Assembly (NCBI GenBank): GCA_964373715.1
Contig: CAYJVR010000002.1
Span: 118,521-182,520 of the forward strand
Source: an uncultured Planctomycetia bacterium
Lineage (GTDB): Bacteria > Omnitrophota > Gorgyraeia > 1-14-0-20-64-10
Direction: 5' to 3'
Length of the DNA: 64,000 bases
Shown here one piece after another: positions 28,177-44,267 of the stretch; positions within the stretch are counted from its first letter, which is position 1; every line of letters starts with the position of its first letter. Below the pieces are notes generated by a model. That model was not told the origin of the DNA. It did no database searches and worked only from the letters and a program-made list of their open reading frames with translations. Position numbers and translations under genes: made by a program.

Positions 28177-30831
28177 ATGGAATTGACCGAGAGGAGCACC
28201 GTTTCCCTGCCCAAAACCGTCGAGTGGCAGAAAGAGGGCGTTCATATTTTTCTTGATCCTGAGACGCCTCACTGGCTAGCGGCTGATTCCAGAGGGGCGC
28301 AGATCATGAGCTGGGCCAGGGGAGAGATGCCGGTCGGCCGGATCATTCAGCGTTATTCGGAGGCGCACGGGCTCGATACGGCGAAGAGCTGGCTTCACGT
28401 GACCGATTTTCTCTCCGCCCTTCTGCGCTCCGGTTTCGCCCGGACTGAACTGGTCGCCCGGGCTCCTTACCTCGGACGAGCCGCCTACGCCCGCCCGACC
28501 GGCTTAAAGGAGCTCTGGTTCCATACCAACAACATCTGCAATCTCTCTTGCTCCCATTGTCTTGTCAGTTCCGCCCCCTGGGTGCAGGACTGGGGCCTGC
28601 CGACAGACCGGTTCCTTTCTCTCGTGGATGAGGCGATCGAGCTGGGGGTGGACAGATTTTACTTCACCGGCGGCGAGCCGTTCATGCGCAAGGATATCTT
28701 TCATCTGATCCGCACCGTTACCGAGACGAAGGGTTGCGAGCTGATCATCCTGACCAACGCTACGCTGTTGAAAGGGGAGAAAGCGGAAGGGGTCAAAACC
28801 CTCAATCGCCAGAAGGTCCGGTTCCAGGTCAGCGTGGACGGCGCCTCCCCTGAAACCAACGATCCGATTCGAGGCAAGGGGTCGTTCCAGTCGGCGGTGG
28901 AGGGGTTAAGATACCTGGCTTCGCTCGGGTTCGAGACTTCCATCACAACGGCGGTGACCGGCACCAACCTGCAGGACCTGTTGGGGATCACCCGGCTTGC
29001 CCGGGAACTCGGCGTCAAAACCCAGCATTTGATGTGGCTCCATAAGCGGGGACGGATAGTGGGCCGGGAGGAGGTGGCTGCACCTGCTGCTGTGGCTGTC
29101 GCCGCCGGCGGGAACGGTTCCAAATCCCCCGGTTGGGCCGATGGCCATCAGAGAAAAATGAAAGCCTTTTCAGGTCAGACCGAGCTTGGATTTCCGGAAT
29201 CGCAGCAGCTCATTGATGCGGTCCGGAAGGTAAAGGTTTTGGCGGATGAGCTGGGTGTCACGGTGGACAACCTCGAGTCGATCAAATTGAGGGTCAACTC
29301 CCGTCCCGGTGTAAAGTACGACTTAGGAAATGCCTGCTGGGATTCTCTCTGCATCTATTCGGACGGGAAGGTGTATCCTTCCGCGGCGATGGCCAATTTC
29401 AAGCCGCTTATGCTGGGCTCGCTGAAAGAAACCCCCTCTTTAAAAGAGATTTGGCAGCGGTCTCCGGTCGCCGAAGCGTTCCGGCAGGCCTCCGTCAACC
29501 GGAAGGCTCACCTGGCCGATGATCCGCTTCGCTACCTCACAGGCGGTGGAGATTCGGAGCACAGTTTCTTTTTTAACTTAAACGGCGATTCGGAATCCGG
29601 GACGATTGCTCCCGAGAAGATCCTCGACATTCTGTCGGGTCCCGACCCGTACTACCCGGTTTATCAGGCGATGATCCAGGATGCGATCTGGGAAATCGTT
29701 CTGCACAAACGGGACGCGGTCAACCGGAAGTCTGGCTACGATGCCCCGCGCGTCCTGCACGCGATGGGGGACGGAGCGATACACTGCGCTACCGACGATT
29801 TGGCGATCACTGGAGAGATCGATGTGAGGACCCTGCACTCTAACTGTGTTCTCGCGTTCGACGTGGACAAGCCGAGAAAGATGGTGCGGGAGTTTTACGG
29901 CAAGGCGGCCGAAACGCCGCAGGCCGAGCTTTGCTGTCCCACGAAGTTCGACGATTCCGCGATCGCCCACATCCCGAAAGATGTGATCGACCGGTTCTAC
30001 GGCTGCGGTTCTCCGGTCACCTCCGGCAATTTGAAAGAGGGAGAGACCTTTTTGGATCTTGGCTCGGGCGCCGGGATAGACTGCTTCATTGCCGCCAAGC
30101 TCGTCGGCCCGAAGGGCAAGGTGCTCGGGATCGATATGACCGATCAGATGCTGAAGGTAGCTGAAGAAAACAAGCCGATCGTCGCAAAGAATCTCGGCTA
30201 TGACGTGGTGGAGTTCCGAAAAGGATTTCTCGAGACGGTTCCGGCTGACTCAAAAAGCGTTGATCTGATTACCTCCAACTGCGTGATCAATCTTTCGCCG
30301 GACAAACCGAAGGTTTTCTCCGAGATCTGGCGGATCTTGAAGGACAACGGACGGACCGTGATCGCCGATATTGTCTCCGACCGGCCGGTGCCGGCCCATC
30401 TGAAGGTCAATCCCCAGTTGTGGGGCGAGTGCACCGTGGGGGCTCTGACCGAAGAGGAATTCCTGGCCCATCTTCAGGAAGCCGGTTTCTACGGCCTCTC
30501 GGTCTTGAAGAAGGTCTACTGGAAATCGATCGACGGCTACGATTTTTACTCGGTCACGGTGGCCGGCTACAAGTTCGAAAAGACGGCCGGCTGCACGTTC
30601 ATCGGGCAGAGGGCGATTTATCTGGGCCCGATGAAATCGGTCATGGACGAGGAAGGGCACCTGTTCCCCCGGGATGTGGAGGTGGAGGTTTGCACCGACA
30701 CCGCGGCGAAGCTCTCGAAGCCGCCGTACGCCGGCTCGTTCACTGTGATCCAACCGGACGCTCAGCGGATCTCTGTGACCGCGAACATGCAGTCTGCCGA
30801 TAGCGGCTGCGGTCCCGCAGGCTGCTGCTGA
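28177..30831 (+). CDS. Four-part fusion: PqqD-like RRE + radical SAM + SPASM/twitch-like Cys cluster + ArsM-type As(III) SAM methyltransferase, with a C-terminal Cys-rich tail (CGPAGCC)
   Basis: Residues 20-85 are PqqD/RRE-like (IFLDPETPHWLAADSRGAQIMSWARGE...DFLSALLRSG). CNLSCSHC (CxxxCxxC) + FTGGEP. NACWDSLCIYSDGKVYPS (SPASM-like). ArsM hallmarks FYGCGSP, LDLGSGAGIDCF, ITSNCVINLSPDKPKVF and WGECTVGAL. The last 12 aa are SADSGCGPAGCC. Its stop overlaps the arsR start (TGATG). Confidence 0.85.
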   Translation: MELTERSTVSLPKTVEWQKEGVHIFLDPETPHWLAADSRGAQIMSWARGEMPVGRIIQRYSEAHGLDTAKSWLHVTDFLSALLRSGFARTELVARAPYLGRAAYARPTGLKELWFHTNNICNLSCSHCLVSSAPWVQDWGLPTDRFLSLVDEAIELGVDRFYFTGGEPFMRKDIFHLIRTVTETKGCELIILTNATLLKGEKAEGVKTLNRQKVRFQVSVDGASPETNDPIRGKGSFQSAVEGLRYLASLGFETSITTAVTGTNLQDLLGITRLARELGVKTQHLMWLHKRGRIVGREEVAAPAAVAVAAGGNGSKSPGWADGHQRKMKAFSGQTELGFPESQQLIDAVRKVKVLADELGVTVDNLESIKLRVNSRPGVKYDLGNACWDSLCIYSDGKVYPSAAMANFKPLMLGSLKETPSLKEIWQRSPVAEAFRQASVNRKAHLADDPLRYLTGGGDSEHSFFFNLNGDSESGTIAPEKILDILSGPDPYYPVYQAMIQDAIWEIVLHKRDAVNRKSGYDAPRVLHAMGDGAIHCATDDLAITGEIDVRTLHSNCVLAFDVDKPRKMVREFYGKAAETPQAELCCPTKFDDSAIAHIPKDVIDRFYGCGSPVTSGNLKEGETFLDLGSGAGIDCFIAAKLVGPKGKVLGIDMTDQMLKVAEENKPIVAKNLGYDVVEFRKGFLETVPADSKSVDLITSNCVINLSPDKPKVFSEIWRILKDNGRTVIADIVSDRPVPAHLKVNPQLWGECTVGALTEEEFLAHLQEAGFYGLSVLKKVYWKSIDGYDFYSVTVAGYKFEKTAGCTFIGQRAIYLGPMKSVMDEEGHLFPRDVEVEVCTDTAAKLSKPPYAGSFTVIQPDAQRISVTANMQSADSGCGPAGCC

Positions 30832-31142
30832 TGAAGAAAAGCCTCACCCAGCATGAGGCGGCGGAGCTGTTCAAGGCGCTGGCGGATGAGACCCGCTTGA
30901 GGATCTTGCGGATCCTGTTCGAGAGGGAGCACTGCGTGACCGACCTGATGACCGAGCTGAAGCTCGCGCAGTCCTATGTGTCGCACCACTTAAAGATACT
31001 GAAAACCGCCGGGTTGATTGACTCCCGGAGGGAAGGGCATAAGATCTACTACGCCCTTTTGCCGCAGGTGAAGCAGGGATTGTCGGACGCGAAACAGGAG
31101 TCGCTCGACTTAGGTTGCTGCGAAGTGACGTTCAAGGAGTAA
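30831..31142 (+). CDS. arsR: ArsR/SmtB-family metalloregulatory repressor
   Basis: HTH (CVTDLMTELKLAQSYVSHHLKILKTAGL) and a C-terminal Cys pair (LDLGCCEV) typical of As(III)-sensing ArsR variants. Translationally coupled to the upstream gene. Confidence 0.85.
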   Translation: MKKSLTQHEAAELFKALADETRLRILRILFEREHCVTDLMTELKLAQSYVSHHLKILKTAGLIDSRREGHKIYYALLPQVKQGLSDAKQESLDLGCCEVTFKE

Positions 31143-31199: not shown

Positions 31200-32312
31200 A
31201 TGACGGCTCTTTTTCTGATTGCGGCGGTTCTTTTCCTTGCCTACACCAACGGGGCGAACGATAACTTCAAGGGGGTTGCCACACTTTTCGGCAGCAAAAC
31301 GGCCGATTACCGTAAAGCGCTTGCTTGGGCGACCGTCACCACTTTTGCCGGCTGTCTTGCCGCGATCTGGGTTTCTCAGGGGTTGATCAAGGCTTTCAGC
31401 GGAAAGGGGATCGTGCCTGCCGCGATGACGACCGATCCGAGATTTTTGTTGGCCGTCGGTTTTGGCGCTGCCCTAACCGTTTTCTTGGCAACGCTGCTCG
31501 GATTCCCGATTTCAACGACCCATGCGCTGACCGGCGCTCTGGTGGGGGCCGGGTGGATGTTGGTTGGGTCCCAGGTGAATGTGGGGAAATTGGGCCAAAG
31601 TTTCTTCCTGCCTCTGGCGTTAAGCCCTGTTGTATCTTTGGCGATTACAACAGTTTTGTATCCCTCCCTCCGGTTTATCCGGCAGACGGTCGGCGTGACG
31701 AAACAGTTGTGTCTTTGCATCGGGCCGGTCCGTGAGCCGGTTCTTGTCCGGACTGACGGGACCATGGTGATGAAAGCGACCGGGTCCGAGCTGTCGGTCG
31801 GGGAACTGAAGAACTGCGTTGAGCAGTACCAAGGGGTCCTTCTCGGCGTTGATTTCCAGCGGGTGATCGATTTTTTTCATTACCTTTCGGCCGGGGCCGT
31901 CGGTTTTGCGCGCGGGTTGAACGACGCGCCCAAGATCGTGGCCATCCTCATCACCGCCCAAGCTCTGCGCATTGGGACGAGGGAAGCCCTTCTGCTTGTC
32001 GCGGTTGCGATGGCCGCTGGCGGCATTCTGAGCGCCAAGAAGGTGGCGCAGACGATGAGCCAGCGGATCACAGCGATGAACCACGGCCAGGGATTCACAG
32101 CGAATTTGGTCACCAGCGTCCTTGTCTCGATGGCTTCCCGCTTTGCGTTGCCGGTTTCAACGACGCATGTTTCCTGCGGCGCCCTTTTCGGTATCGGTTT
32201 GGTCAACCGGAATGCCAACGTCGGTGTCATCCGGAACATCCTGCTTTCCTGGCTGATCACCCTTCCTGTCGCGGCGGGTGTGGCGGCCTCTCTCTATTGG
32301 CTACAGCGGTAG
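31200..32312 (+). CDS. PiT-family inorganic phosphate (and arsenate) transporter
   Basis: Duplicated GANDxxK/N signature (NGANDNFKG; ARGLNDAPKIVA), about 10 TM helices, and a large central loop. Confidence 0.85.
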   Translation: MTALFLIAAVLFLAYTNGANDNFKGVATLFGSKTADYRKALAWATVTTFAGCLAAIWVSQGLIKAFSGKGIVPAAMTTDPRFLLAVGFGAALTVFLATLLGFPISTTHALTGALVGAGWMLVGSQVNVGKLGQSFFLPLALSPVVSLAITTVLYPSLRFIRQTVGVTKQLCLCIGPVREPVLVRTDGTMVMKATGSELSVGELKNCVEQYQGVLLGVDFQRVIDFFHYLSAGAVGFARGLNDAPKIVAILITAQALRIGTREALLLVAVAMAAGGILSAKKVAQTMSQRITAMNHGQGFTANLVTSVLVSMASRFALPVSTTHVSCGALFGIGLVNRNANVGVIRNILLSWLITLPVAAGVAASLYWLQR

Positions 32313-32381
32313 GCGAGTACGAGCGGAGAAATTCCAGCGCCTCTTTTTGCCCTCATTTATGATTTCCGTCATATAAATGGT

Positions 32382-32410: not shown

Positions 32411-32430
32411 TCAACCTATTGAGGTAAATC

Positions 32431-33723
32431 ATGAAAAATATGCGTGGCCGTATGGCGTTGTGGATGGCTGGGGTCTTCTTTGTATCTTATGCTGTTCCCG
32501 TGCAGGCGTCGGAGATGGACATCCTGCTGAGGAAGTTGGTGGAGAAGAAGGTTTTGACCGAGCAGGAGGCGCAGGAAGTCCGTGGCGAGGTGGAGCAGGA
32601 AGTTGCCCGGTCCGCCAAATTCGAGAAGGAAGACGTCAAGGAAACCGTCAAGAAGATACCCGGAGGGACCTGGCTCGAGAAAACGAAATGGGCCGGCGAC
32701 CTGCGCCTGCGGCACGAGAGCCAACTGCGGGAGCCCGCGGCCGACCGGCATCGGGAACGATTCCGCTTGAGGTTCGGTTTCACGACGAAACCGTGGGACC
32801 AGATGGAGGTGGGTGTCCGGCTGGCTACCGGCGCCAGCGGTGATCCGGTTTCCACCAACCAGAGTTTTACCGGCACTTTCGACAAAAAAGCGGTTTTCAT
32901 TGACCGGGCGTACGCGAAATACACGCCGTGGCCCTGGTTCAATCTTGTTGGCGGCAAGATGGAGATACCGTTCGACACTGCCACGGAGATTTTTTGGGAC
33001 GGGGACCTGACGCCGGAAGGGGTGGCCGTTCAGTTCAAGACGCCGGAACCCCTGCCGTTTTTTAAAGAAACTTTTCCGACCAAACTGTTTGCCAACGTCG
33101 GGGCGTTTCAGATTTCGGAGCTCAGCGACGACGCCGGGGATCCGGCAATGTTTGGTTTCCAGGTTGGGAAAGAGACAGGGTTGCCCCGCGGGTTGGTGTG
33201 GACCTCTTCCATCGGTTATTATGACATCACCGCGGTCAGGGGAAAGAGGACTTCTGACATTACTCAGGTGAGCGCTCCCAGCGGCAACTCGACCGATGGT
33301 CCGGTCGCAGCGCCGGTCTACCGGTACGATTTCAACCCGCTCGATATCCAGGGGAAGCTGCTGATTCCGGATATCCTCGGCCAGCAGGTGGTGCTGATCG
33401 GGGATTTTGTCCATAACCCGGTTGCGGAGGATGATAACGGCGCCTGGCAGGCGGGCATCAAGGTGGGGAAGGTGACCGAGAAGATGGGGAGCTGGGAATC
33501 TTCCTACTACTACAAAAGAGTTGAACCGGACGCGATTTTCGGGGCGATCACCGATTCCGATTTTGGCGCCGGCGGATCGAACCATCACGGGCACCGAGTC
33601 GGCCTGCGGGTCGGTTTGAGCAAATGGACTGAGGCCGGCATCACTTATTACCGCACCGATGAGATCGAAGGGGCCCAGAACAAGGTGGATACTCTGCAGG
33701 TGGACGCTTCTGTAAAATACTGA
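32431..33723 (+). CDS. Putative outer-membrane porin (beta-barrel with an N-terminal coiled-coil segment)
   Basis: Signal peptide, charged coiled-coil N-terminus, alternating hydrophobic beta-strand pattern, C-terminal aromatic (…DASVKY). AT-rich promoter-like region upstream. Confidence 0.6.
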   Translation: MKNMRGRMALWMAGVFFVSYAVPVQASEMDILLRKLVEKKVLTEQEAQEVRGEVEQEVARSAKFEKEDVKETVKKIPGGTWLEKTKWAGDLRLRHESQLREPAADRHRERFRLRFGFTTKPWDQMEVGVRLATGASGDPVSTNQSFTGTFDKKAVFIDRAYAKYTPWPWFNLVGGKMEIPFDTATEIFWDGDLTPEGVAVQFKTPEPLPFFKETFPTKLFANVGAFQISELSDDAGDPAMFGFQVGKETGLPRGLVWTSSIGYYDITAVRGKRTSDITQVSAPSGNSTDGPVAAPVYRYDFNPLDIQGKLLIPDILGQQVVLIGDFVHNPVAEDDNGAWQAGIKVGKVTEKMGSWESSYYYKRVEPDAIFGAITDSDFGAGGSNHHGHRVGLRVGLSKWTEAGITYYRTDEIEGAQNKVDTLQVDASVKY

Positions 33724-33799
33724 GCGGGTCACCCTGTTTTTTTGCGAGCCGGGGAGTGAACAACTCCCCTGTTTTGTTTTGAAGTAGAATAGTGGAATC

Positions 33800-34855
33800 A
33801 TGCTGATGCGCCGCGGATTGTGGATAACAGTTATTGCGCTCGCTGGGTTTATCTCAATCGTGAGCCCCGCCGCCGCTTCTTCGAAGCAGGAAACGGTCAT
33901 TGAAGCGGGCGCGTTCTCGAACGGTTTGCCGGCCGGTTTTCCGGAGGGGTGGGAGCTTGTGCCGGCTAAAACCTCGGGGAAACGAACCCTTTACCAGCTT
34001 GTCCGTGAAGGGGAAATCGTTGTCTTAAAAGCGGTCAGCCAAGCAGCCTCCTCCGGCCTGATGCGGGTGGTCTCTTTAAATCCCCGGGATTACCCGATTA
34101 TCCAGTGGCGCTGGAAAGTGGAGGATCTCCTCCGCAGAAGTGATATTTTCCGTAAAAATGGAGACGATTTTTCTGCCCGGCTCTTTCTTTCTTTTGAAAC
34201 AGATCCCTCCAAGGCGGGATGGAGGGAAAGAATTTACATCCAGGCCGGCCGGCTTCTTTACGGGGATTACCCTCTGGCGGAAGGGCTCAACTATGTCTGG
34301 GCCAGCCGCGAGCCTGAGGGAACTATGACTTCCAGTCCGTACACCGAGAGGCTCAAAACAGTTGTTATCGAGAGCGGCAGCGGCAAGCTGAACACGTGGG
34401 TGGTGGAGGAACGGAATTTTTATGAGGACTACAAAAAGGCTTTCGGGCAGGAGCCGCCCGCTCTTTACAGCGTGGCGGTGATGACGGATACCGATAATAC
34501 CGGCGGGACGGCGGTGGCTTATTACGGGGATATCCTCTTCAGTAAAGAGCCGTTGAAAAGCGTGATGGAGGGGCAGCCGAGATATGGTACGATCACCGAG
34601 AGTTCTTCACTTCCAGGCATTCAGGGGACCGCCATCATCTCAAAAAATATTGACCAGCGAGGCCGCCGCGTTAGAGCGCTGGGGGGGATTGCCCTCCTGG
34701 CGGCGGCCCTCTTGTTGGTGTTGGGAGTCCCTTCCTGGCCGGTATGGAAGATTATCATCGTGATCAGCTTTTCGTGCGGCGGGTTGTTCATGCTTTTCGA
34801 GGCCTTCAGCGGGTGGTGTGTGCTGCGCGCCTGCGGCATAAAAACCCCCGTATAG
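33800..34855 (+). CDS. Secreted DUF3047-like domain protein with a C-terminal YgaP/DUF2892-like two-helix membrane anchor
   Basis: Signal peptide. C-terminal LGGIALLAAALLLVLG...SFSCGGLFMLFEAFSGWCVLRACG matches the Gx-W-C...R-x-CG pattern of DUF2892. The DUF3047 assignment is from memory. Confidence 0.55.
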   Translation: MLMRRGLWITVIALAGFISIVSPAAASSKQETVIEAGAFSNGLPAGFPEGWELVPAKTSGKRTLYQLVREGEIVVLKAVSQAASSGLMRVVSLNPRDYPIIQWRWKVEDLLRRSDIFRKNGDDFSARLFLSFETDPSKAGWRERIYIQAGRLLYGDYPLAEGLNYVWASREPEGTMTSSPYTERLKTVVIESGSGKLNTWVVEERNFYEDYKKAFGQEPPALYSVAVMTDTDNTGGTAVAYYGDILFSKEPLKSVMEGQPRYGTITESSSLPGIQGTAIISKNIDQRGRRVRALGGIALLAAALLLVLGVPSWPVWKIIIVISFSCGGLFMLFEAFSGWCVLRACGIKTPV

Positions 34856-34869
34856 GAAACCTTAGATTA

Positions 34870-36393
34870 GTGAGAGTTGTCATTATCGGCGCGGGCATCG
34901 GCGGGTTGGCTTGCGGGATCCGTCTGGCGTCGCGCGGTTATCAGGTCACGATCCTTGAAAAGAACGAGATAGCCGGCGGGCGATGCAACCGCTATCAGGA
35001 AAAGGGTTTTACGTTCGACACCGGGCCGACCCTTTTCATGATGACCGACACCCTTGAAGAGCTTTTTCGGTATGCCGGCCGAAAGATGTCCGATTACGTG
35101 ACCCTGTGCCGGATTGATCCCGCCTACAGAATCACCTATTCCGATGGCCAAACTCTTGAGTTCACCGATAGGATGAAGATTCTGGAGGAGGAGATCCGGA
35201 AATTCGGCCCCCGTGAGCTTCAGGGATTCTACCGGTACGCGGCCCAGAACGGCGAATCGTACAGGCACCTGCGGGCGAAGTTCATCGACAAACCGCTGGA
35301 GGTTCCCTCCCAGTGGGCTGATTTAGAGTCGCTTGGCCTGCTGGCCCGGCTGAAGCCTTGGAGAGATGTCCTTTCGGTGGCCAAACGGCACTTTGATTCT
35401 CCCCACCTGCGGATGGCGTTCAGCTTTCACACGCTCTATCTGGGGATTTCCCCGCAGGCAGCCCCGTCCATGTACACCATGCTTCCTTATATTGATCTCG
35501 TGCAGGGGGTCCATTACCCTCTCGGTGGGATGTCCCAGATTCCGGCGGCTTTAACGCGCCTCTTCGGCGAGCTCGGAGGAGAGATACGGTATGGCGTCGA
35601 GGTCGAGCAGATCGTCACCAGTTCGGGCCGTGTCAGGGAGGTGCTTCTGCACGATGAGAGAACCGTCCCTGCCGACGTCGTCGTTTCGAACGTTGATATG
35701 CCGGTCACGATGAACCGTTTCCTGAAGCACCAGCCGATGTCCGGCCACAAGCGGCGCGTCCTCAAGATGAAAAGGGGCTGTTCCGCCGCCGTTTTTCTCT
35801 TGGGGCTCGACAAGGCCTATCCGCAGTTGTCCCACCATAACCTCTATTTGCCGATGGTTTTTGAGAGATCTCTTCATGAGTTGTTTGATCTGGGGCAAAT
35901 CCCTCAAGAACCGGCCTTTTATCTGTGTGCGCCTGCAAGAACGGATGCGGCGATGGCACCAAAGGGGTCCGAGAGCGTCATGATTTTAGTACCTTGTCCG
36001 AATGAGGAGGTGCTGCCGGATGTCGGCGCGCAGATGCCCCTGTTACGTGAGAAACTTTTGAACCTTTTGGACCGAACGTTTTTGCCGGATATCCGGCGCC
36101 ATATCATTGTCGATAAAACTCTGCCTCCCTCCTGGTATGGGCGGCGCTACGCGTTGGCCGGTTCGGCCACATTCGGTTTCTTGCCGACATTTTTCCAGTC
36201 AGCGATGTTCCGGCCCCAGAGGCGGTCTCCGGACGTCCGGGGCCTTTACTATGCCGGGGCCAGCACCCATCCGGGCAACGGAATCCCGATCGTTTTAATC
36301 GCCGGCCGATTTGCCGCTGAGGCTATTGTTGAAGATTTTGGTTCGGTGCGCCATGTCCTCCCTTCTGTCCGAAACGTTACGCCAATCGGTTGA
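34870..36393 (+). CDS. Phytoene-desaturase-family (CrtI/CrtN/CrtP-like) FAD-dependent oxidoreductase, copy 1; likely GTG start at 34870
   Basis: VVIIGAGIGGLACGIRLA...ILEKNEIAGGR dinucleotide-binding fold; C-terminal GAGTHPG-like motif (YYAGASTHPGNGIP). Confidence 0.8.
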   Translation: MRVVIIGAGIGGLACGIRLASRGYQVTILEKNEIAGGRCNRYQEKGFTFDTGPTLFMMTDTLEELFRYAGRKMSDYVTLCRIDPAYRITYSDGQTLEFTDRMKILEEEIRKFGPRELQGFYRYAAQNGESYRHLRAKFIDKPLEVPSQWADLESLGLLARLKPWRDVLSVAKRHFDSPHLRMAFSFHTLYLGISPQAAPSMYTMLPYIDLVQGVHYPLGGMSQIPAALTRLFGELGGEIRYGVEVEQIVTSSGRVREVLLHDERTVPADVVVSNVDMPVTMNRFLKHQPMSGHKRRVLKMKRGCSAAVFLLGLDKAYPQLSHHNLYLPMVFERSLHELFDLGQIPQEPAFYLCAPARTDAAMAPKGSESVMILVPCPNEEVLPDVGAQMPLLREKLLNLLDRTFLPDIRRHIIVDKTLPPSWYGRRYALAGSATFGFLPTFFQSAMFRPQRRSPDVRGLYYAGASTHPGNGIPIVLIAGRFAAEAIVEDFGSVRHVLPSVRNVTPIG

Positions 36394-37819
36394 CCTCAAC
36401 GGCGGTTCGGCCGCGCAGGCTGTTTCCGGCGCCCGGGCCGCTTTTGAAAGATGGAGATCCCTGTCTATCCGCCAGCGTGCGGCCTATCTGTTCACACTGC
36501 GCCGCCGGATCGCCGCCCAAGCGGAATCTCTCTCTCAGCTAATTGCCGAAGAGAACGGGAAGCCGGTCCTCGAAGCGTTAGGGGCGGAGGTTTTCGGGTC
36601 TCTGGAAGCTCTCGGCGTCCTTTTGTCGGAGGGGGAGAAATGGCTTGCTCCCGAAAATATCCGGATGACTTTTTTTGACCGGTTCCGTGGAGTGCGCCGA
36701 AGACAGCTCTTTTATGAACCGTTCGGTGTTATCGGGATCATAGGCACCTGGAATTACCCTCTTTTGATCAACATGAGGCAGATTACCAGCGCTTTATTTG
36801 CCGGCAACACCGTTGTCTGGAAACCGTCGGAACTTTCGCTGAATCTCGCCGTTCGTCTGCAGTCTCTTTTCGAGGAAGCCGGTTTCCCCGAGGGGGTCTT
36901 CACCCTCCTTCCCGGGGATAGCCGGGCCGGAGAGGCCCTTATTAAGGCGGGATGCGATAAGGTCATTTTTACCGGCCATGGGAAGACCGGCCGCAGGATT
37001 CTTGCTGCGTTGGCTGAACAGGCGGTGCCCTCGGTTATGGAGCTCTCCGGGGCGGACGCCGCTTTGGTTTGCGAGGATGCCGATCTTCCACTTGCCGTGA
37101 AAGGCCTGGCCTGGGGCGCGATGACCAACGCGGGGCAGTCCTGTGTCGCCAGCCGGCGCATTATCGTTCATCAGACTGTTTACCCTGTTTTCGCGGATGC
37201 CTTTCTCAAGATTGTCCGCGCCTTAAAGATCGGCGACCCGAAGAATCCGGACACGGAGGTTGGGCCGCTGAGGACGCAGGCGCAGGCGGATCTTTTGGAG
37301 GAGTTGATCCGGGATGCCGTCGGTAAAGGGGCCGTTGTATTGGCGGGCGGACGCCGATTGAACAATCCCGGAGGTGTTTTTTTTGAGCCGGCGGTTTTGA
37401 CAGGGGTAAACGATTCCATGACCATTGTCCGGGAAGAATTCTTCGGTCCGGTGGTTCTGTTATTTTCCGCCCGGGATGAGGGGGAGATGGTTGCGTTTGC
37501 CAACAACTCTCCGTACGGATTGGGCGCCAGCGTTTGGACCAGGGATCGCCGCCGCGGCCAGCGCCTCGCTTCCCGGTTGGAGTCGGGGATTGTTTGGGTC
37601 AATGAAGCCCTTTTTTCGGCCGGAGACGGTCGTCTTCCTTTCGGCGGCGTCAAAGGGTCTGGTTTCGGGCGGGTGGGCGGAGCGGAGGGTTTAAGGCAGA
37701 TGGCCCGCGTGAAATGCGTTGAGGAGGCGTCGCCTCAGGGGTTCCGTCCCCACTATTTCCCTTATGGCGCTGAGAAATATAAGCAGCTTTCCAAAATCAT
37801 CCGCTGGAGGCATCGGTGA
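36353..37819 (+). CDS. NAD(P)-dependent aldehyde dehydrogenase
   Basis: GTWNYPL, VVWKPSE, catalytic ELSGADAALV (Glu), GQSCVA (Cys) and EEFFGPV motifs. Confidence 0.85.
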   Translation: MSSLLSETLRQSVDLNGGSAAQAVSGARAAFERWRSLSIRQRAAYLFTLRRRIAAQAESLSQLIAEENGKPVLEALGAEVFGSLEALGVLLSEGEKWLAPENIRMTFFDRFRGVRRRQLFYEPFGVIGIIGTWNYPLLINMRQITSALFAGNTVVWKPSELSLNLAVRLQSLFEEAGFPEGVFTLLPGDSRAGEALIKAGCDKVIFTGHGKTGRRILAALAEQAVPSVMELSGADAALVCEDADLPLAVKGLAWGAMTNAGQSCVASRRIIVHQTVYPVFADAFLKIVRALKIGDPKNPDTEVGPLRTQAQADLLEELIRDAVGKGAVVLAGGRRLNNPGGVFFEPAVLTGVNDSMTIVREEFFGPVVLLFSARDEGEMVAFANNSPYGLGASVWTRDRRRGQRLASRLESGIVWVNEALFSAGDGRLPFGGVKGSGFGRVGGAEGLRQMARVKCVEEASPQGFRPHYFPYGAEKYKQLSKIIRWRHR

Positions 37820-37868
37820 CCCCACCACCTGTTTTCTCGGTGATGGGCAGGTTAAAGGAGGTGGTGGG

Positions 37869-39398
37869 GTGAGCCGTATCGCTGTGGTTGGAGGCGGACT
37901 TGCCGGTTTGGCCGCCGCTATCCGCTGCGCCCACGCGGGGCATGAAGTGACTCTGTTTGAGAAGAACGACCGGGCGGGGGGGAAGATGAACGTGATCGAG
38001 GAACGAGGGTTCCTTTTCGACACCGGCCCCACCATTATGACGATGCCGCAGAATCTGAACCGGTTGTTTGCCTCGGTAGGCCGGCGGCGGGAGGATTACA
38101 TTCCGCTCGTTCCGCTTGATCCCCAGTGGCGGGCTTTTTTCGAGGACGGGAAGGTGATCAACGTTTGGGGGAACCGGGGAAAAATGACCGAAGAGATCCG
38201 CCGGTTTTCGAGCAAAGATGCCGATTCGTACGCCCGGTTCCGGGAATATGCGCAAAGGATGTACGGGTTTGCGGAGAGGTTCTTCTTCTGGCGTTCGGTG
38301 AGCAATCTGAACGACCTGCTGGCGATGAACGGCCTGATGGGTATGGAGAGCATGAAAATCCTGTGGCAGATAGATCCGCTAGCGACCGTTTCAAACGCGA
38401 TTGACCGGCATTTCCAGGAGCCTCATGTGCGGCAGATCTTAGAGCATTTCATGCAGTACGTTGGTTCGGACCCGCACCGGGTCCCGGCGTTCCTGACGGC
38501 CATTCACCATATCCAGATGGAGTTCGGTGTCTGGTACCCGATGGGGGGCATGAATCGGATTGCCGCCGGCCTGACCCGGCTGGCGAATGATCTCGGCGTG
38601 AAGATTGTCCTTAACGCCCAGATCAGCCGGATCGTAACCGAAGGATTCCGTGTCCGAGGTGTGGAACTCCAGGGAGAGATGGTTCCGGCCGATGCGGTCC
38701 TTGCCAATTCGAACTTTGTTCGTTCCCACAAAGAGCTTCTGCCGGCGACCGCCACAAAACGACGCATTGAGAATAACCCTAAAAGGTATGAACCGGCCTG
38801 TTCGGGGATCGTGATCTATTTTGGGGTGGACCGGAAATATGATTCTCTCTGGCACCACGACTTCTTTTTTTCAAAGGATCCGAAACGGGAATTTGAGGAC
38901 ATCTACCGAAGGAAAATCCCGACGCAGGACCCGACGCTGTGCGTCTGCGCCCCTTCCCGGACCGACGCCTCCGTGGCTCCGCCCGGCTGCGAAAACGTTT
39001 ACGTGCTGGTGCATACTCCATACCTGCAGGGAAAAGAAAACTGGGAGACCCTCTACCGGCCGTACAGAGACCTGATCGTCCGGAAGCTGGAGAGGTGCGG
39101 GCTGACCGATTTCCGGAAACACATCGTAGTGGAGAAGTGGATGACGCCGGTGGATTTGGAGCAGCGGTACCGGGTGGACCGAGGGGCAATCTATGGGATC
39201 GCCAGCCACGGCCGGTTCCGGGGAGGGTTTAAACCTTCCAACCGGTCGAAAGATTTTTCGAATCTCTACTTCTGCGGAGGCAGCGTTAATCCCGGCCCCG
39301 GTGTCCCGATGGCGCTCATGTCGGGGCAGATTGCCGCCGACTGCGTTCTTGAGGACATCGGTTCGGTTCGTGCCTTCCGGCAGCCTAGTTTGGTTTAA
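37869..39398 (+). CDS. Phytoene-desaturase-family FAD-dependent oxidoreductase, copy 2; likely GTG start at 37869, preceded by AAAGGAGG
   Basis: IAVVGGGLAGLAAA...LFEKNDRAGGK; C-terminal YFCGGSVNPGPGVP. Confidence 0.8.
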   Translation: MSRIAVVGGGLAGLAAAIRCAHAGHEVTLFEKNDRAGGKMNVIEERGFLFDTGPTIMTMPQNLNRLFASVGRRREDYIPLVPLDPQWRAFFEDGKVINVWGNRGKMTEEIRRFSSKDADSYARFREYAQRMYGFAERFFFWRSVSNLNDLLAMNGLMGMESMKILWQIDPLATVSNAIDRHFQEPHVRQILEHFMQYVGSDPHRVPAFLTAIHHIQMEFGVWYPMGGMNRIAAGLTRLANDLGVKIVLNAQISRIVTEGFRVRGVELQGEMVPADAVLANSNFVRSHKELLPATATKRRIENNPKRYEPACSGIVIYFGVDRKYDSLWHHDFFFSKDPKREFEDIYRRKIPTQDPTLCVCAPSRTDASVAPPGCENVYVLVHTPYLQGKENWETLYRPYRDLIVRKLERCGLTDFRKHIVVEKWMTPVDLEQRYRVDRGAIYGIASHGRFRGGFKPSNRSKDFSNLYFCGGSVNPGPGVPMALMSGQIAADCVLEDIGSVRAFRQPSLV

Positions 39399-39404
39399 AA
39401 AACG

Positions 39405-40508
39405 GTGTCAGCCAACCTTTACACCCATCCTCCGTCGAGGTTGTTGTACGCTCAGGTCAGGGAAGATCCCGATGTGGATCTTCAAGCTCTGCGTATTGTT
39501 CCCGACGACAAGGTGCTGGCCGTCACCTCCGGCGGCTGCACCGCGCTGACCCTGCTGGCGGAAGGGCCGAAGGAGCTCCTCTGCGTCGATTTCAACCCCG
39601 CCCAGAATTACCTGCTCGAGCTTAAACTGGCGGCGATCCGCAGTCTGCCCCTGGTTGAATGCCGATCTTTCCTCGGGGCCCGTAAAGGAGGCGGACGGTT
39701 GGCCGCGTACCGGTCCCTGACCGGAGCGCTTTCACCGCTGACCCGGGTCTTTTGGGACAAGAACCCCCAGAGGATCGAGGAGGGGGTCCTTTACGCGGGC
39801 GCCACCGAAGCGATGGTGAAATGGATGAGGCGCCTTGTCTTTGGGTTTGTCCATTCTCCCGAGACGTTAAGGCCTTTGCTTAAACAGAGAGATACGCAGG
39901 CCCAAACCGATTTTTACAAGAATGTTTGGAACAATAAACGGTGGCAAGGTGTAATGAAACTGGCTTTCCATCCGCTGATGTTCAAAGTTGTTTACGGGCG
40001 CCGGTTTCTTCAACGGCTCGGCGAGGAAGATCTTACCAGTTTGTGGATGCAGAAGATCGAGCATGCCTTCACAGATATCCCGGTCCGAAACAACTATTTT
40101 CTTTCCCAGTTATTTTGGGGAAGGTTCCTTCCCGGAGAAGAAGGGCTGCCGCCCTATCTGCGTGAAGGGGTCTTCGAGCGGGTCCGGGCGAACGCCGGCC
40201 GTTTGAAATGGGTGACGGGCGATCTTATCACTGTTTTAGGAAGCGTTCCTCTGGGGCGTTACACCAGGATGACCCTTTCCAACGCTTTTGAGTGGATTCC
40301 AAAAATGAGGACAAAAGAGGCGTTTGAGTCTCTGTCCTGGGCTCTCGCACCCGGCGGGAAGGCGGTTGTGCGGCACCTGCTGGGCGTGACCCCTCTGCCG
40401 GCCGGCGTTGATTTGCGGGAGCTCAAAGAAGTCAGCGATCGGCTGACAGTCCAGGAAAGGGCATTCCTTTACAGCCGGGTATCGGTTTATGAAAGGACCC
40501 GGCAATGA
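39405..40508 (+). CDS. DUF3419 / BtaA-like protein (family of SAM:diacylglycerol 3-amino-3-carboxypropyl transferase)
   Basis: N-terminal LLYAQVREDPDVDLQAL...VLAVTSGGCTAL matches the YAQVWEDP...SAGCN signature I recall for BtaA/DUF3419. Confidence 0.6.
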   Translation: MSANLYTHPPSRLLYAQVREDPDVDLQALRIVPDDKVLAVTSGGCTALTLLAEGPKELLCVDFNPAQNYLLELKLAAIRSLPLVECRSFLGARKGGGRLAAYRSLTGALSPLTRVFWDKNPQRIEEGVLYAGATEAMVKWMRRLVFGFVHSPETLRPLLKQRDTQAQTDFYKNVWNNKRWQGVMKLAFHPLMFKVVYGRRFLQRLGEEDLTSLWMQKIEHAFTDIPVRNNYFLSQLFWGRFLPGEEGLPPYLREGVFERVRANAGRLKWVTGDLITVLGSVPLGRYTRMTLSNAFEWIPKMRTKEAFESLSWALAPGGKAVVRHLLGVTPLPAGVDLRELKEVSDRLTVQERAFLYSRVSVYERTRQ

Positions 40509-41461
40509 CGGCTGTTGTTTCGCGCAGGTGGTTAGGCCCGCTGTGCAGGTGGCTCTGGTATCTGTCCCTCTCTTATTTATGGCTTGGCCTGATGTTCCTC
40601 CTGTTCATCCATCAGGCGACCTCTTTTTTCTGGTGGGGTTTGCCAGCGGCCGTCATTTTTTGGAGATTGGCGAAAGCTCTGTCGCCGCATTCTTTCGGAA
40701 CCTTCGGCAAATGGACGGTCCATTTTCTCTGCGCGTTTTTGCTTATCGGCGGGCAAGTTCTCCTATGGCGTTACGGCTATTTTTTCCGGGATCCGGAAAG
40801 GGTAATCCCTTCCCGGCCGGCTATCCTGGCTCCGGCGGATGGTTTTATCGTTTATATCCGGCCGGTCAGCGAGGGGATGGTTCCTCTGGCCATCAAGAAC
40901 AAGGTGCCGATCCGGTTGGAGGAGATCCTCAAGATGGAGAGTCCCATCGGGGAAAGCGTGATCGTCGGGATCTTCATGACGCCGATGAGCGTCCACATCA
41001 ACCGGTCCCCGATCAACGGTGTTATCCAGGAGAGGGCCTACTTTACGGGGGAGCCGATGCGCTCGATGCTGCCGATGGGTCTTCGCACGATGTTTCTTCG
41101 AAAACCTTTTGAAGCGGGGTCGGAGCATATTCTCCGGAATGAGAGGGAGACCCTGTTGATCCGAGGAGATTTCCCGGTTTTGCTGACCCGTATTGCCGAC
41201 CCTTTCGTGGATAAGATTGTGACCTGGAAAACCATCGGAGAGACGGTCCGGCAGGGTGAACGGCTGGGGCTCATCAAGATGGGTTCCCAAACGGATCTGG
41301 TGTTTCCTTCCCGGATGAACGGCAAGCCGGTCCGCGTTTATGTCAAAGAGGGACAGTATGTGTATGCCGGCAGCACCATTCTCGCCGATTACGATGGCGC
41401 TGCCCTCGCACACCACCCTCTCCCCCTGCTAGGGGGAGAGGATAAAGGTGAGGGGGTATGA
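40505..41461 (+). CDS. Phosphatidylserine-decarboxylase-like (pyruvoyl-dependent) enzyme with N-terminal TM segments
   Basis: Three N-terminal TM helices; FMTPMSVHINRSP.NG and LIKMGSQTD (the G-S-T/Q self-cleavage region) resemble PSD family motifs. ATGA overlap with the upstream gene. Confidence 0.65.
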   Translation: MTAVVSRRWLGPLCRWLWYLSLSYLWLGLMFLLFIHQATSFFWWGLPAAVIFWRLAKALSPHSFGTFGKWTVHFLCAFLLIGGQVLLWRYGYFFRDPERVIPSRPAILAPADGFIVYIRPVSEGMVPLAIKNKVPIRLEEILKMESPIGESVIVGIFMTPMSVHINRSPINGVIQERAYFTGEPMRSMLPMGLRTMFLRKPFEAGSEHILRNERETLLIRGDFPVLLTRIADPFVDKIVTWKTIGETVRQGERLGLIKMGSQTDLVFPSRMNGKPVRVYVKEGQYVYAGSTILADYDGAALAHHPLPLLGGEDKGEGV

Positions 41462-43395
41462 TCTCCGTCATCATCCCGACGCTGAACGAAGAGGCAACCC
41501 TTCAGGCAACGCTCGATTCAGTTGCGGCCAACCAGGCGGATTATGAAGTAATCGTCGTGGATGCCGGCAGCAGCGACAAAACGGCGGAGATTGCGCACGG
41601 CGCCGGCGCTCGCCTTCTGGTGAGCCCCCGGCGACATCGGGCGGCCCAGATGAATTTTGGGGCGAAGGAGGCGAAAGGGGAGATACTGTTCTTCCTCCAC
41701 GCCGATACCCGGATTCCTACCGCCGCTTTGAAACGGATCGAGCAGGCGCTTGCGCGGGCGGACATGGTTGGCGGCGGGTTCCGTCGTTATTTCGATTCAA
41801 AGTCGCTGTTTTTGAGAGCCAGTTGCTGGGTGGCCGGGATCCGGTGCCGGGTCTCGGGGCTGTTCTTGGGGGACCAGGGGATATTCATCCGGCGCAGTCT
41901 CTTTGAAAAATTGGGCGGTTTCCGGGAGCTGGATTTCTTTGAGGATGTGGATCTCTGCCGTCGGATGAAGGAATTTGGACGGGTGGCGACCCTGGGTCCG
42001 CCGGTTCTTTCATCGGCCCGCCGGTTCGAGCGTTTTGGGCCGGTGGCCACGACCTTCACGGACCTCTCTTTATCGCTGAGGTACATAAAAGGGGAAGATC
42101 CGAACGGTTTAGCCGCAGAATTGAGGGGTGAGTTCACGTCCGGCGAAAAGATATCGGCCATCATCCCGACACTCAATGAAGAAGAGTCATTGCCCCGCCT
42201 GCTTTCCCAGGTTTGCGGAAAAGTTGAGGAGGTGATCGTCGTTGATGGGGGGTCTTCGGACGGCACAGTGGAAGCCGCTCGGCATTTTCCGGTCAAGGTC
42301 ATCCTCTCCGCGAGGGGGAGGGCTTTTCAGATGAATACGGGGGCGTCAGCCGCTTCAGGGGATCTCCTCTGGTTTCTCCACGCTGATACCCAGCTGCCGT
42401 CCAATTGGCGCGGGCAGATGGCCTCTGCTTTGAGAAAGCCATCCGTTATTGGAGGGGGATTCCGAGTGGTGATTGATGCCTCCGGCATCGGGTACCGTTT
42501 TCTCGATTTATGGGGGCGGTTGCGCACCGGCATCCAAGGGTCTTTCTATGGAGACCAGGGGATCTTTGTGCGTCGCGGATTCTTTGAATCGTTAGGAGGG
42601 TTTGACGACCGTCCTGTTTTGGAAGATTTGGATTTCTCAACGAGGATGTCACGGCGGGCCAGGGTAAAAATTCTTGCCGGGCCTATAAAAACGTCGGCCA
42701 GACGCTGGCAATCCCAGGGCTGGTGGTCCACCGTGTTGCAGCACTGCCGGTACGCTGTTTCTTACCTGTTTAGCCCGAAAGCCGGTTCTGCGGCCGTTTT
42801 GATCGTTATGGCAAAAGCCCCTGTTCCCGGTCAGGTGAAGACCCGGCTTATTCCGGCTTTAAACCCGGAACAGGCCGCTCAGATTGCCGAAAGGCTTTTG
42901 AGGGAAACAGCGGTTCTTGTCCATCAGGTGGAGGGGATCCGCCCCGTTATTGCCGTTTCCCCTCCGGAGGGAATGGAGCGGGTGAAAGAGGTCCTTTCTT
43001 TTCCGGCGAGATTGATTCCTCAGCCGGAAGGGGATCTTGGGATCCGTTTGACCCGGTTATTCCAGGAGACTTTTGATTCCGGCGCCCAGGCGGTGCTGGT
43101 GTTGGGGGCCGATCACCCGAATCTTCCGCAAGAGTATCTGGCGCAGGCGGTAGCGGAGTTAAGAAAAAGAGGGGACCGGGTTGTGTTCGGGCCGACCGAG
43201 GATGGCGGATATTATCTGGTCGGGATGAAAAGGCCGCACCCCGAGCTGTTTGCCGGGATAACCTGGAGCACCTCTGAGGTCTTGCGCCAAACCCTGGGAA
43301 AGGCGAAGACCTCTGGAGTTTCTGTAAAGCTATTACCTTCCTGGTACGATTTGGATCGGCCTGAGGATTTGGCCCGGTTAGCCGTTGTGACTTGA
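41458..43395 (+). CDS. Triple fusion: GT2 glycosyltransferase + GT2 glycosyltransferase + DUF2064 (MobA-like nucleotidyltransferase fold)
   Basis: Two copies of the IS(V/A)IIPTLNEE...(L)FLHADT GT-A signature at residues 1-210 and 220-440. C-terminal LIVMAKAPVPGQVKTRLIP...GADHPNL...EDGGYYLVG resembles DUF2064. ATGA overlap with the upstream gene. Confidence 0.8.
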   Translation: MISVIIPTLNEEATLQATLDSVAANQADYEVIVVDAGSSDKTAEIAHGAGARLLVSPRRHRAAQMNFGAKEAKGEILFFLHADTRIPTAALKRIEQALARADMVGGGFRRYFDSKSLFLRASCWVAGIRCRVSGLFLGDQGIFIRRSLFEKLGGFRELDFFEDVDLCRRMKEFGRVATLGPPVLSSARRFERFGPVATTFTDLSLSLRYIKGEDPNGLAAELRGEFTSGEKISAIIPTLNEEESLPRLLSQVCGKVEEVIVVDGGSSDGTVEAARHFPVKVILSARGRAFQMNTGASAASGDLLWFLHADTQLPSNWRGQMASALRKPSVIGGGFRVVIDASGIGYRFLDLWGRLRTGIQGSFYGDQGIFVRRGFFESLGGFDDRPVLEDLDFSTRMSRRARVKILAGPIKTSARRWQSQGWWSTVLQHCRYAVSYLFSPKAGSAAVLIVMAKAPVPGQVKTRLIPALNPEQAAQIAERLLRETAVLVHQVEGIRPVIAVSPPEGMERVKEVLSFPARLIPQPEGDLGIRLTRLFQETFDSGAQAVLVLGADHPNLPQEYLAQAVAELRKRGDRVVFGPTEDGGYYLVGMKRPHPELFAGITWSTSEVLRQTLGKAKTSGVSVKLLPSWYDLDRPEDLARLAVVT

Positions 43396-43454
43396 GACGC
43401 GATTTGCGGTAAAATAACGGATGAAACTGTCAGGAGAGAAGAGATTCGAGAACG

Positions 43455-43781
43455 ATGGGAATGCCGAATAAACCCCCGCGGCTTCGAGATCCGAGAATCG
43501 CGGCGGTCGTCAATCAAAACGGATGCACCGGCTGTGAAGCCTGCCTGACTGTCTGTCCGGTGGATTCTATTGAGTTTGTGCCTGGCGTGGAATACTCCGG
43601 TTTATTAAAAATGGTGGAGATAGATCTGGATCGCTGCATCGGCTGCGGGCTGTGCCCGAAAATTTGCCCGTGGGACACCATATCGATGGTCGACTACAAA
43701 GAGGCGCGTCCGATAGCGGAATCCCTCACGATCCGCAGCATTGTGCCGGGGCAAAAGCCCGGCGTCTCTTCCCCTGTTTAA
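43455..43781 (+). CDS. 2[4Fe-4S] ferredoxin
   Basis: CTGCEACLTVCP and CIGCGLCPKICP cluster-binding motifs. Confidence 0.8.
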   Translation: MGMPNKPPRLRDPRIAAVVNQNGCTGCEACLTVCPVDSIEFVPGVEYSGLLKMVEIDLDRCIGCGLCPKICPWDTISMVDYKEARPIAESLTIRSIVPGQKPGVSSPV

Positions 43782-43793
43782 AAGGAAAATGCA

Positions 43794-44267
43794 ATGGCCG
43801 CGACGTATGTCACAAAAGCGGGTCTTGAAAAACTCCAGCAGCAGTTGAAGGATCTTACTGATCACAAGAGGCGCCTTTCCGCGGAGGTGGGCAAAGCAAG
43901 GGAGTTGGGTGATTTGCGGGAAAACGCCGAGTACCATGCCGCCCGGGAGCGCCTCGGACAAATACTCGATAAGATCGCCGTACTCCAGGAAAAACTCCAG
44001 CATGTGGAAATCGTGGACACCTCCACACTTCAGAAGGGTATCGCGATCATCGGAACCCGCGTGACGGTCAAGGATCTCAGCAGCTCGCAGGAAGAGACTT
44101 ACGAATTGGTGGGGGCTGAAGAGTCGGATCCGGCCGCCGGTAAGATCTCGGTCCTTTCTCCTCTGGGTAAAGCTTTTCTCGGGCATAAGGTCAACGAGAA
44201 GGTGACAGCCGCCCTCCCGGGAGGAGCCTTTTCCTACCAGATCCTTTCCATAGAGCCGGTTGGATAA
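43794..44267 (+). CDS. greA: Transcription elongation factor GreA
   Basis: LTKAGLEKLQQQL coiled-coil N-terminus, RENAEYHAAR motif, and an FKBP-like C-terminal domain. Confidence 0.9.
   Translation: MAATYVTKAGLEKLQQQLKDLTDHKRRLSAEVGKARELGDLRENAEYHAARERLGQILDKIAVLQEKLQHVEIVDTSTLQKGIAIIGTRVTVKDLSSSQEETYELVGAEESDPAAGKISVLSPLGKAFLGHKVNEKVTAALPGGAFSYQILSIEPVG

Follow-up and report, generated by a model that had tools for sequence, protein, structure and literature searches.

A single-chain GT2-GT2-DUF2064 protein in an arsenic gene cluster of a probable Omnitrophota genome

In the literature that we searched, the characterised part of arsenosugar biosynthesis ends with 5'-deoxy-5'-dimethylarsinoyl-adenosine (DDMAA), the product of ArsS, and no report on the glycoside-forming enzymes was found. 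ArsS adenosylates dimethylarsenite, DMAs(III), to give DDMAA (PMC13598754), a conversion which a passage of PMC12159101 credits to Cheng et al. 2021. The ArsS/ArsM gene clusters known as 'arsenosugar biosynthesis' clusters also carry separate genes of the families TIGR04283 and TIGR04282, formerly 'rSAM/selenodomain-associated transferase 2 and 1', and NCBIfam names both as arsenosugar-cluster enzymes. Here we describe a locus in which the two families occur on one polypeptide. The window, i.e., the whole stretch of DNA analysed, comprises 64,000 nucleotides (nt) of contig CAYJVR010000002.1 (assembly GCA_964373715.1, positions 118,521 to 182,520) from a probable Omnitrophota genome, and the gene in question encodes two TIGR04283 glycosyltransferase (GT) modules, A and B, followed by a DUF2064/TIGR04282 module, D. 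The locus has in common with the separate-gene clusters the same families, a flavin adenine dinucleotide (FAD) disulfide oxidoreductase, VTT and DUF547 proteins, ArsM and PHO4, and module A falls into one clade with their glycosyltransferase. It differs from them in that the enzymes form one chain, TIGR04283 is present twice and a fusion of a radical S-adenosylmethionine (SAM)/SPASM protein with ArsM is found instead of ArsS. Domain orders are abbreviated below with G for TIGR04283, D for DUF2064/TIGR04282 and g for a distant GT2 domain. The gene and its modules, in amino acids (aa), are as follows.

41458..43395, + strand: G-G-D fusion protein, whole open reading frame (ORF), 645 aa, ATG start; GT2(A)-GT2(B)-DUF2064(D)
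41458..42141, + strand: module A, aa 1-228; TIGR04283 GT-A glycosyltransferase of the standalone ('solo') clade
42142..42795, + strand: module B, aa 229-446; TIGR04283 GT-A glycosyltransferase of the Omnitrophota G-D-fusion clade
42796..43392, + strand: module D, aa 447-645; TIGR04282/DUF2064, CofC/FbiD-like nucleotidyltransferase fold

The reading frame runs through 41458-43395 without a stop codon or frame change, and the composition of two GT2 domains and one DUF2064 domain, which the first-pass annotation had read from the translation, was borne out by the Pfam and NCBIfam domain calls at these coordinates. The motifs it had quoted are all present (MISVIIPTLNEE / ISAIIPTLNEE, FLHADT twice, GGGF twice, LGGF twice, FEDVDL / LEDLDF, and LIVMAKAPVPGQVKTRL). 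On the 645-aa protein, Pfam called Glycos_transf_2 (PF00535) in two stretches (E 6.9e-49) and DUF2064 (PF09837) at aa 489-605 (E 4.5e-31; 107.6 bits against a cut-off of 25.8), and NCBIfam called TIGR04283 twice and TIGR04282 once. Each module was also scanned alone against the curated NCBIfam cut-offs. Modules A and B scored 230.5 and 221.0 bits with TIGR04283 (equivalog cut-off 182), covering model positions 1-218 and 1-210 of 221 respectively, and module D scored 205.0 bits with TIGR04282 (cut-off 134). With the CofC/FbiD model TIGR03552, module D gave 49.4 bits, which is under the equivalog cut-off of 105, and it is therefore no CofC. Similarly, modules A and B gave 59.8 and 50.7 bits with the model TIGR03965 of the mycofactocin glycosyltransferase MftF, under its equivalog cut-off of 280, and neither of them is an MftF. 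The antisense or overlapping ORFs at 41787-42302 (-), 43212-43517 (-), 40763-41416 (-) and 40489-41112 (+) matched no Pfam family.

A total of 241 TIGR04283 domains were aligned for a residue check, and 52 columns were found to be at least 85% conserved in the 233 domains outside the G-G-D proteins. Both glycosyltransferase modules keep 51 of these 52 columns, the exceptions being I86 in A and A401 in B, so that neither half is the pseudo-domain without catalytic motifs that had been considered at the outset. The invariant motifs of the family (VVD-x-GS-x-D, Q-M-N, F-L-H-A-D, G-D-Q, E-D and S-x-R-R) are found in A as D35, D40, Q64, N66, H81-A-D83, G138-D-Q, E162-D163 and R188-R189, and in B as D263, D268, Q291, N293, H308-A-D310, G365-D-Q, E389-D390 and R415-R416. 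The intact DxD expected in each half is absent in its literal form, and at that position both modules have the family-invariant H-A-D. All 38 conserved DUF2064 columns are kept in module D, including K461-T-R-L, G550-x-D552-x-P, D582-G-G-Y-Y and D631-x-D633. Judged by these residues, the three modules on the one polypeptide look catalytically intact.

The fusion is genuine. An identical 645-aa protein is on record (GCA_947085675.1, contig CAMTXI010000002.1), and three further orthologues of 642-647 aa (Logan SRR27730039/37, NCBI GCA_023248015.1 and ENA ERZ978390) are 61-64% identical. All four orthologues, which come from different projects and assemblers, consist of one ORF in the order A-B-D. 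An assembly or frameshift artefact joining separate genes, which the first-pass annotation had named as a possible refutation, would be in keeping with the metagenome-assembled source and with the separate, abutting partner genes of most sampled genomes, but the same single ORF in four independently assembled orthologues, the uninterrupted frame in the window and the ordered linkers in the predicted structure leave it a negligible probability. Mean identity among the four orthologues is 66.8% for module A and 60.6% for module B; A is conserved at least as well as B, and both therefore appear to be under purifying selection.

Modules A and B share the same motif order and align with 42% identity over 209 aa (E 3e-50), which had been read as an internal tandem duplication. 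This part of the first-pass annotation did not hold. With module A alone as query, thousands of proteins were matched, of which the best 120 were all standalone proteins of about 245 aa from Verrucomicrobia and other groups, with 53-61% identity, many of them labelled 'rSAM/selenodomain-associated transferase 2' or TIGR04283. Module A is 56% identical to the solo proteins versus 41% to module B, and module B is about 55% identical to the glycosyltransferase of the two-domain G-D fusions of Omnitrophota. In a neighbour-joining tree of 84 domains with 100 bootstraps, A grouped with the solo proteins in 100 of 100 replicates and B with the Omnitrophota G-D proteins in 96 of 100, whereas A and B were sisters in none, which makes the protein a fusion of two paralogues that diverged long ago. 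Moreover, the relatives with only B-D begin exactly at the start of module B. On the strength of the identities and the bootstrapped tree we reject a recent duplication of one glycosyltransferase within the gene, which we consider highly improbable, and we hold with high confidence that the architecture arose when a solo-type TIGR04283 gene was fused in frame 5' of a pre-existing B-D fusion gene.

Twenty columns separate the solo and G-D clades and cluster at aa 112-137. Module A is of the solo type at these columns, and module B is of the G-D type with 19 of the 20 signature residues. C123 (nt ~41824-41826) lies within this variable segment and is a cysteine conserved at 98% in the solo/A clade, the G-D and D-G clades having Asp or Glu (>90%) at this position. 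This residue could be relevant for the binding of a trivalent arsenical or of the acceptor.

Fused arrangements of the two families are frequent among the relatives, whereas the G-G-D order is rare. The best 120 matches of a word-indexed search consisted of 4 G-G-D, 42 G-D, 60 g-D-G and 13 D-G proteins and one G-D protein with a split DUF2064 match. An exhaustive scan of 1.84 billion representatives at 50% identity gave 76,711 matches at E <= 0.001, and the best 150 of them included 106 D-G, 24 G-D, 11 g-D-G, 3 G-G and 1 G-D-G, with G-G-D occurring in the query's own cluster only. Among the matches examined, the G-G-D order was found only in P0001-P0004, all of which belong to one 50%-identity cluster, and the GT/D pair was fused as G-D, D-G, g-D-G or G-G in hundreds of clusters. 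Protein match lists of this kind over-represent fusions, since with a fused query the higher scores go to proteins of several domains.

Among these relatives are the Omnitrophota G-D fusions of about 410-460 aa (P0005-P0045; loci L004, L005 and L010), to which B-D is 53-63% identical over the full length and which share the radical SAM-ArsM, PHO4 and ferredoxin neighbours. Module A is absent from these proteins, and so is the Porin/DUF3047/CrtI/aldehyde dehydrogenase (AldDH)/DUF3419/phosphatidylserine decarboxylase (PSD) block described below from their loci. The g-D-G proteins (~670-720 aa) of Planctomycetota and Desulfomonilaceae also contain two GT2 domains and a DUF2064 domain, although in another order, and their N-terminal GT2 domain belongs to a different, distant GT2 family (~35 bits, ~25% identity). 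The D-G, G-G (P0256, P0281 and P0313) and G-D-G (P0242, with two TIGR04283-like modules) proteins are combinations of the same families in other domain orders. Larger fusions were also observed (P0313, P0314, P0261, P0301 and P0246), namely G-G with a PMT-type GT-C domain (1048 aa), GT87 with DUF2064 and GT2 (876 aa), Pyr_redox_2 with DUF2064 and GT2 (831 aa), DUF2064 with GT2 and rhodanese (648 aa), and a 1138-aa protein in which about 470 N-terminal residues have no domain assignment.

The genome survey, in which the ORFs of 41 species-representative loci were checked, agrees with the earlier remark that the partners are usually separate genes: 31 loci have separate GT and DUF2064 genes, two have a G-D and one a D-G fusion, and seven have one partner only. 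Genome matches of ~1250 nt, which might be taken for G-D fusions, proved on the ORF check to be separate, mostly abutting genes in 31 of the 41 loci. The two partners are adjacent in 29 of the 41 loci, and in five loci there is a single stop codon and 6-12 nt between them, which indicates that such fusions arise readily. The G-G-D protein is thus a new architectural variant of a catalogued, frequently fused enzyme pair, and only one small clade carries it. As an evolutionary event the fusion is unremarkable. Both families, and many fusions of them, had been catalogued before.

The AlphaFold2 (AF2) model of the 645-aa protein has a mean predicted local distance difference test score (pLDDT) of 92.6 and consists of three alpha/beta domains, with confidence falling only at the two linkers, around aa 221-230 and aa 430-450. 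In the input alignment MAFFT placed the standalone sequences on module B, which left module A with four rows, and A still reached a pLDDT of ~95-97. Module D matches the DUF2064 structure 3cgx (E 4e-22, 30% identity; template modelling score (TM) 0.78, root-mean-square deviation (rmsd) 1.9 Å) and the 3-phosphoglycerate guanylyltransferase 7p97 (TM 0.78-0.83). In the alignment, its KTRL and GADHP motifs correspond to AKTRL and QGDLP of FbiD from M. tuberculosis (6bwg), in which the aligned Asp of G-x-D-x-P is a metal ligand. Module D therefore shares the fold and the KTRL and G-x-D-x-P motifs of CofC/FbiD and 3cgx while scoring below the CofC cut-off. The GT modules match inverting GT2 structures, namely 6p61 (TM 0.80), WrtF, PcManGT and TarS/TarP.

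With the whole chain as Foldseek query, the best matches were K4CP (2z86), PmHS2 (8vh7) and LARGE1 (7zvj), with E values of 1e-18 to 1e-10. Like the protein of the window, these enzymes have two tandem GT-A catalytic domains on one chain, and in each of them the two domains perform different transfers. They differ from it in having no third nucleotidyltransferase-like module and in a low overall similarity (TM 0.2-0.3, rmsd 17-21 Å, identity 8-17%), so that only individual domains superpose and not their arrangement; for the K4CP/PmHS2 type the Foldseek E value of 1e-18 goes along with a TM of 0.26-0.28 and an rmsd of 17-18 Å. Nothing suggests that the window protein is a polymerase.

The G-G-D gene is the second-to-last gene of a co-directional cluster on the + strand (25013-43781). 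The other members of this cluster are listed below.

25013-26563, + strand: FAD disulfide oxidoreductase (PRK06370, 814.7 bits)
26590-27237, + strand: VTT/DedA protein (VTT_dom)
27279-28130, + strand: DUF547 protein (DUF547)
28177..30831, + strand: fusion of a radical SAM (weak SPASM) protein and an ArsM-like arsenite methyltransferase, 884 aa (PF04055, PF13847; PRK11873, 227.7 bits)
30831..31142, + strand: ArsR-type helix-turn-helix (HTH) regulator, 103 aa, inferred from the orthologous position in L002, called HTH_5
31200..32312, + strand: PHO4-family phosphate (probable arsenate) transporter (PF01384, E 1e-62)
32431..40508, + strand: inserted block of genes resembling those of lipid metabolism, with Porin_5, DUF3047, CrtI-family, aldehyde dehydrogenase, CrtI-family and DUF3419 (BtaA family) genes
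40505..41461, + strand: phosphatidylserine-decarboxylase-like (PSD-like) protein (PF02666, E 1e-36)
43455..43781, + strand: 2x[4Fe-4S] ferredoxin (Fer4 families), the last gene of the cluster

The ATG of the fusion gene overlaps the stop codon of the PSD-like gene by four nucleotides (ATGA) and is preceded by a purine-rich stretch. The PSD-like gene was found directly upstream of G-G-D in all four loci, and the ferredoxin gene downstream of G-G-D in L002, L056 and L057 and downstream of G-D in L005. A promoter and terminator scan of 24400-44300 gave predictions that are not above shuffled sequence (5 against 6.0 and 33 against 28.4 expected).

Several of these neighbours recur in clusters of the arsenosugar type. 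The canonical order around a standalone A-type gene is ArsM - ArsS - TIGR04283 - oxidoreductase - VTT - DUF547, with DUF2064 nearby, and the oxidoreductase-VTT-DUF547 trio flanks the standalone TIGR04283 gene in the canonical ArsS clusters L007-L009 and in L006. PHO4 recurs in L004, L006, L008 and L010. A Phycisphaerales g-D-G locus has the same gene set as the canonical ArsS clusters, and 22 of the 41 representative loci have an ArsS homologue at a distance of up to 10 kb. In the window, the 884-aa fusion is the only radical SAM protein found. It contains CxxxCxxC, all four cysteine motifs of ArsM (LCCP, YGCG, SNCVINL and WGEC) and a Cys-rich C-terminus, and it scores 59.7 bits with the ArsS model TIGR04167 (cut-off 300). 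ArsS being absent, this fusion appears to replace it. It also occurs directly upstream of the G-D gene in Omnitrophota L004, in the same cluster ~2.4 kb upstream of G-D in Omnitrophota L010, where PHO4 and GH1 genes lie in between, and in Elusimicrobiota L062.

L010 has two further features, an extra divergent TIGR04283-like gene (1731-2582) and a GH1 beta-glucosidase gene immediately upstream of G-D (8649-10019). The extra gene narrowly misses the cut-off with 179.2 bits, and its GDQ motif is changed to GTN. It was considered as a split counterpart of module A and rejected, given its 35-38% identity to every clade and the exchange of GDQ for GTN.

Among the TIGR04283 loci fetched, the Porin-to-PSD block was found only with G-G-D, and with G-G-D it was present in all loci that were long enough. 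The CrtI-AldDH-CrtI-DUF3419-PSD part of it, at 34744-41461 (+) in the window, recurs as a cassette in L061 (7027-13477), where there are no GT and no arsenic genes nearby, and in the Elusimicrobiota contig L062 (2025-8384), where it is again without GT and adjoins the radical SAM-ArsM fusion and a low-molecular-weight phosphatase (ArsC-like fold). The cassette is therefore an independent module. Arrival of module A together with this block was tried as an explanation and rejected, as the cassette lacks a GT in L061 and L062 and A-type genes lack the cassette in L007-L009; the two are linked by position only. When metagenomes were scanned with the PSD-like protein, three distant loci were the only matches, and none of them had other genes of the cluster. 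A possible logic of the cassette is aminocarboxypropyl transfer, decarboxylation, amine oxidation and then aldehyde oxidation. The listed ORF starts of its CrtI-family and aldehyde dehydrogenase genes (34744, 36311 and 37719) overlap their upstream neighbours by ~80-110 nt, and as the called orthologues in L002 are shorter by 14-49 aa, the true starts are probably further downstream. The radical SAM-ArsM fusion in place of ArsS and the CrtI-AldDH-BtaA-PSD cassette make the gene cluster more unusual than the G-G-D protein within it.

Functional coupling of GT and D is indicated by their adjacency in 29 of the 41 loci and their fusion in hundreds of clusters. The link to arsenic comes from the NCBIfam names, from ArsM, ArsR and PHO4 in the window, from the 22 of 41 loci with ArsS at most 10 kb away, and from the position of standalone A-type genes between ArsS and the oxidoreductase-VTT-DUF547 trio. 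We consider a role of the G-G-D protein in an organoarsenical glycoconjugate pathway to be reasonably probable. In the mechanism that we propose, the ArsM domain would methylate As(III) and the fused radical SAM domain, replacing ArsS, would make an adenosylated arsenical of the DDMAA type. Adenine would then be lost by the action of enzymes like those of methylthioadenosine (MTA) salvage, and module D would activate 5-arsenoribose-1-phosphate with a nucleoside triphosphate (NTP), as its CofC/FbiD-like fold, KTRL motif and Asp residues for metal binding may suggest. The inverting GT2 modules A and B would transfer the activated sugar to form beta-glycosides, either to two acceptors or in two successive steps, and the activated arsenical intermediate would, owing to the fusion, stay on a single protein. 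Different jobs for A and B are suggested by the 20 clade-discriminating columns and by the nearest whole-chain folds, which are bifunctional enzymes with two GT-A domains. The sequence proposed in the first-pass annotation, a nucleotidyl transfer followed by two glycosyl transfers, is compatible with the predicted folds and the motifs. We lean slightly in favour of the working explanation as a whole, i.e., the architecture, its origin and an arsenosugar-type mechanism, and hold the specific chemistry of activation by D and transfer by A and B as tentative and rather doubtful.

A number of observations weigh against this working explanation. The 'arsenosugar' label of TIGR04283 and TIGR04282 comes solely from gene neighbourhood, and our literature searches (DUF2064, the TIGR accessions, and arsenosugar with glycosyltransferase) found no functional or biochemical study of either family. 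No homologue of canonical ArsS (TIGR04167: Radical_SAM + DUF3641) is present in the 64-kb window, and as the radical SAM domain is of a generic SPASM-like type, the DDMAA-type intermediate is an assumption. The window also contains no nucleosidase, phosphorylase or kinase able to supply the ribose-1-phosphate. To our knowledge, known arsenosugars contain one glycosidic bond only, which leaves a second GT without an obvious role, and the predicted TM (pTM) of 0.65 makes the arrangement of the modules in the AF2 model uncertain. Finally, the PDB entries that match the GT modules best by sequence are the polyprenyl-phosphate glycosyltransferases DPMS and ArnC together with GpgS, and among the relatives there are fusions to a GT-C domain (PMT or GT87) and others to a pyridine-nucleotide disulfide oxidoreductase or rhodanese; the DPMS, ArnC and GpgS matches and the GT-C fusions mean that other acceptors are possible.

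The same architecture might accordingly serve another glycoconjugate that accompanies arsenic or redox-stress genes. Candidates would be a sugar linked to a lipid or to polyprenyl phosphate, or, by analogy with CofC/FbiD and GpgS chemistry, a conjugate of the phosphoglycerate or lactate type. The sequence matches and GT-C fusions just described favour such a product, as do the GT87/MptA and VTT/DedA genes that adjoin the relatives, the resemblance of D to 3-phosphoglycerate and 2-phospholactate guanylyltransferases, the 19 of 41 loci without an ArsS homologue within 10 kb, and the G-D gene of L005, which has no arsenic genes nearby. On the other hand, ArsM, ArsR and PHO4 are part of the window cluster, ArsS lies within 10 kb in the other 22 loci, and standalone A-type genes directly abut ArsS. 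Furthermore, the modules are without transmembrane segments, unlike DPMS and ArnC, which are membrane-bound. A product other than an arsenosugar is therefore a serious alternative, though we consider it the less probable outcome. Less likely again is that one GT module is catalytic and the other a covalent dimer partner, scaffold or regulator, with the fusion fixing a heterodimer. The single glycosidic bond of known arsenosugars and the single TIGR04283 gene of canonical clusters would fit this, and the extra paralogue of L010 with its lost GDQ shows that degenerate paralogues exist in such clusters. However, the 51 of 52 conserved columns kept by A and by B include every invariant Asp, His, Glu, Gln and Arg, both modules score above the equivalog cut-off, each keeps the signature residues of its own clade, and A is at least as conserved as B among the orthologues.

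Two other regions of the window gave side observations. At 21112-22548 and 22239-23327 (+), the ORFs of an amino-acid permease and an isoaspartyl methyltransferase (PCMT) overlap in different frames, and in the relative L005 a single protein of 671 aa comprises both the permease and the PCMT domain; the genes may be truly split here, or one of the assemblies may contain a frameshift. A haem-copper oxidase cluster at 8621-15089 (-) encodes COX1, COX2 and an EB_dh-domain multihaem cytochrome c; it also contains an 814-aa ORF combining COX15/CtaA and UbiA/CtaB domains. The latter ORF is probably over-extended, since its listed TTG start overlaps COX1.

By gene neighbourhood alone, TIGR04283 and TIGR04282 are the standing candidates for the glycoside steps that follow ArsS, and the recurrent GT/DUF2064 fusions are 'Rosetta stone' evidence that the two act jointly. 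The G-G-D protein, with its two diverged GT modules, is a compact single-protein reagent for testing late arsenosugar-type chemistry. A bolder reading, which we regard as speculative and improbable in its entirety, is that 25013-43781 represents an undescribed organoarsenical pathway of Omnitrophota, in which the radical SAM/SPASM-ArsM fusion would take the place of ArsS, G-G-D would carry out the steps after adenosylation, with activation by a nucleotide and then two distinct arsenoribosyl transfers (e.g., to a small polyol and to a lipid), and the cassette would make or tailor the second acceptor. If this were true, the pathway would lead to a new arsenolipid or to a compound derived from an arseno-amino acid. 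The locus indicates that the TIGR04283/TIGR04282 pair can operate without canonical ArsS, beside a radical SAM/ArsM fusion, and thereby broadens the range in which organoarsenical glycoconjugate synthesis may be searched for, including the uncultured Omnitrophota of groundwater.

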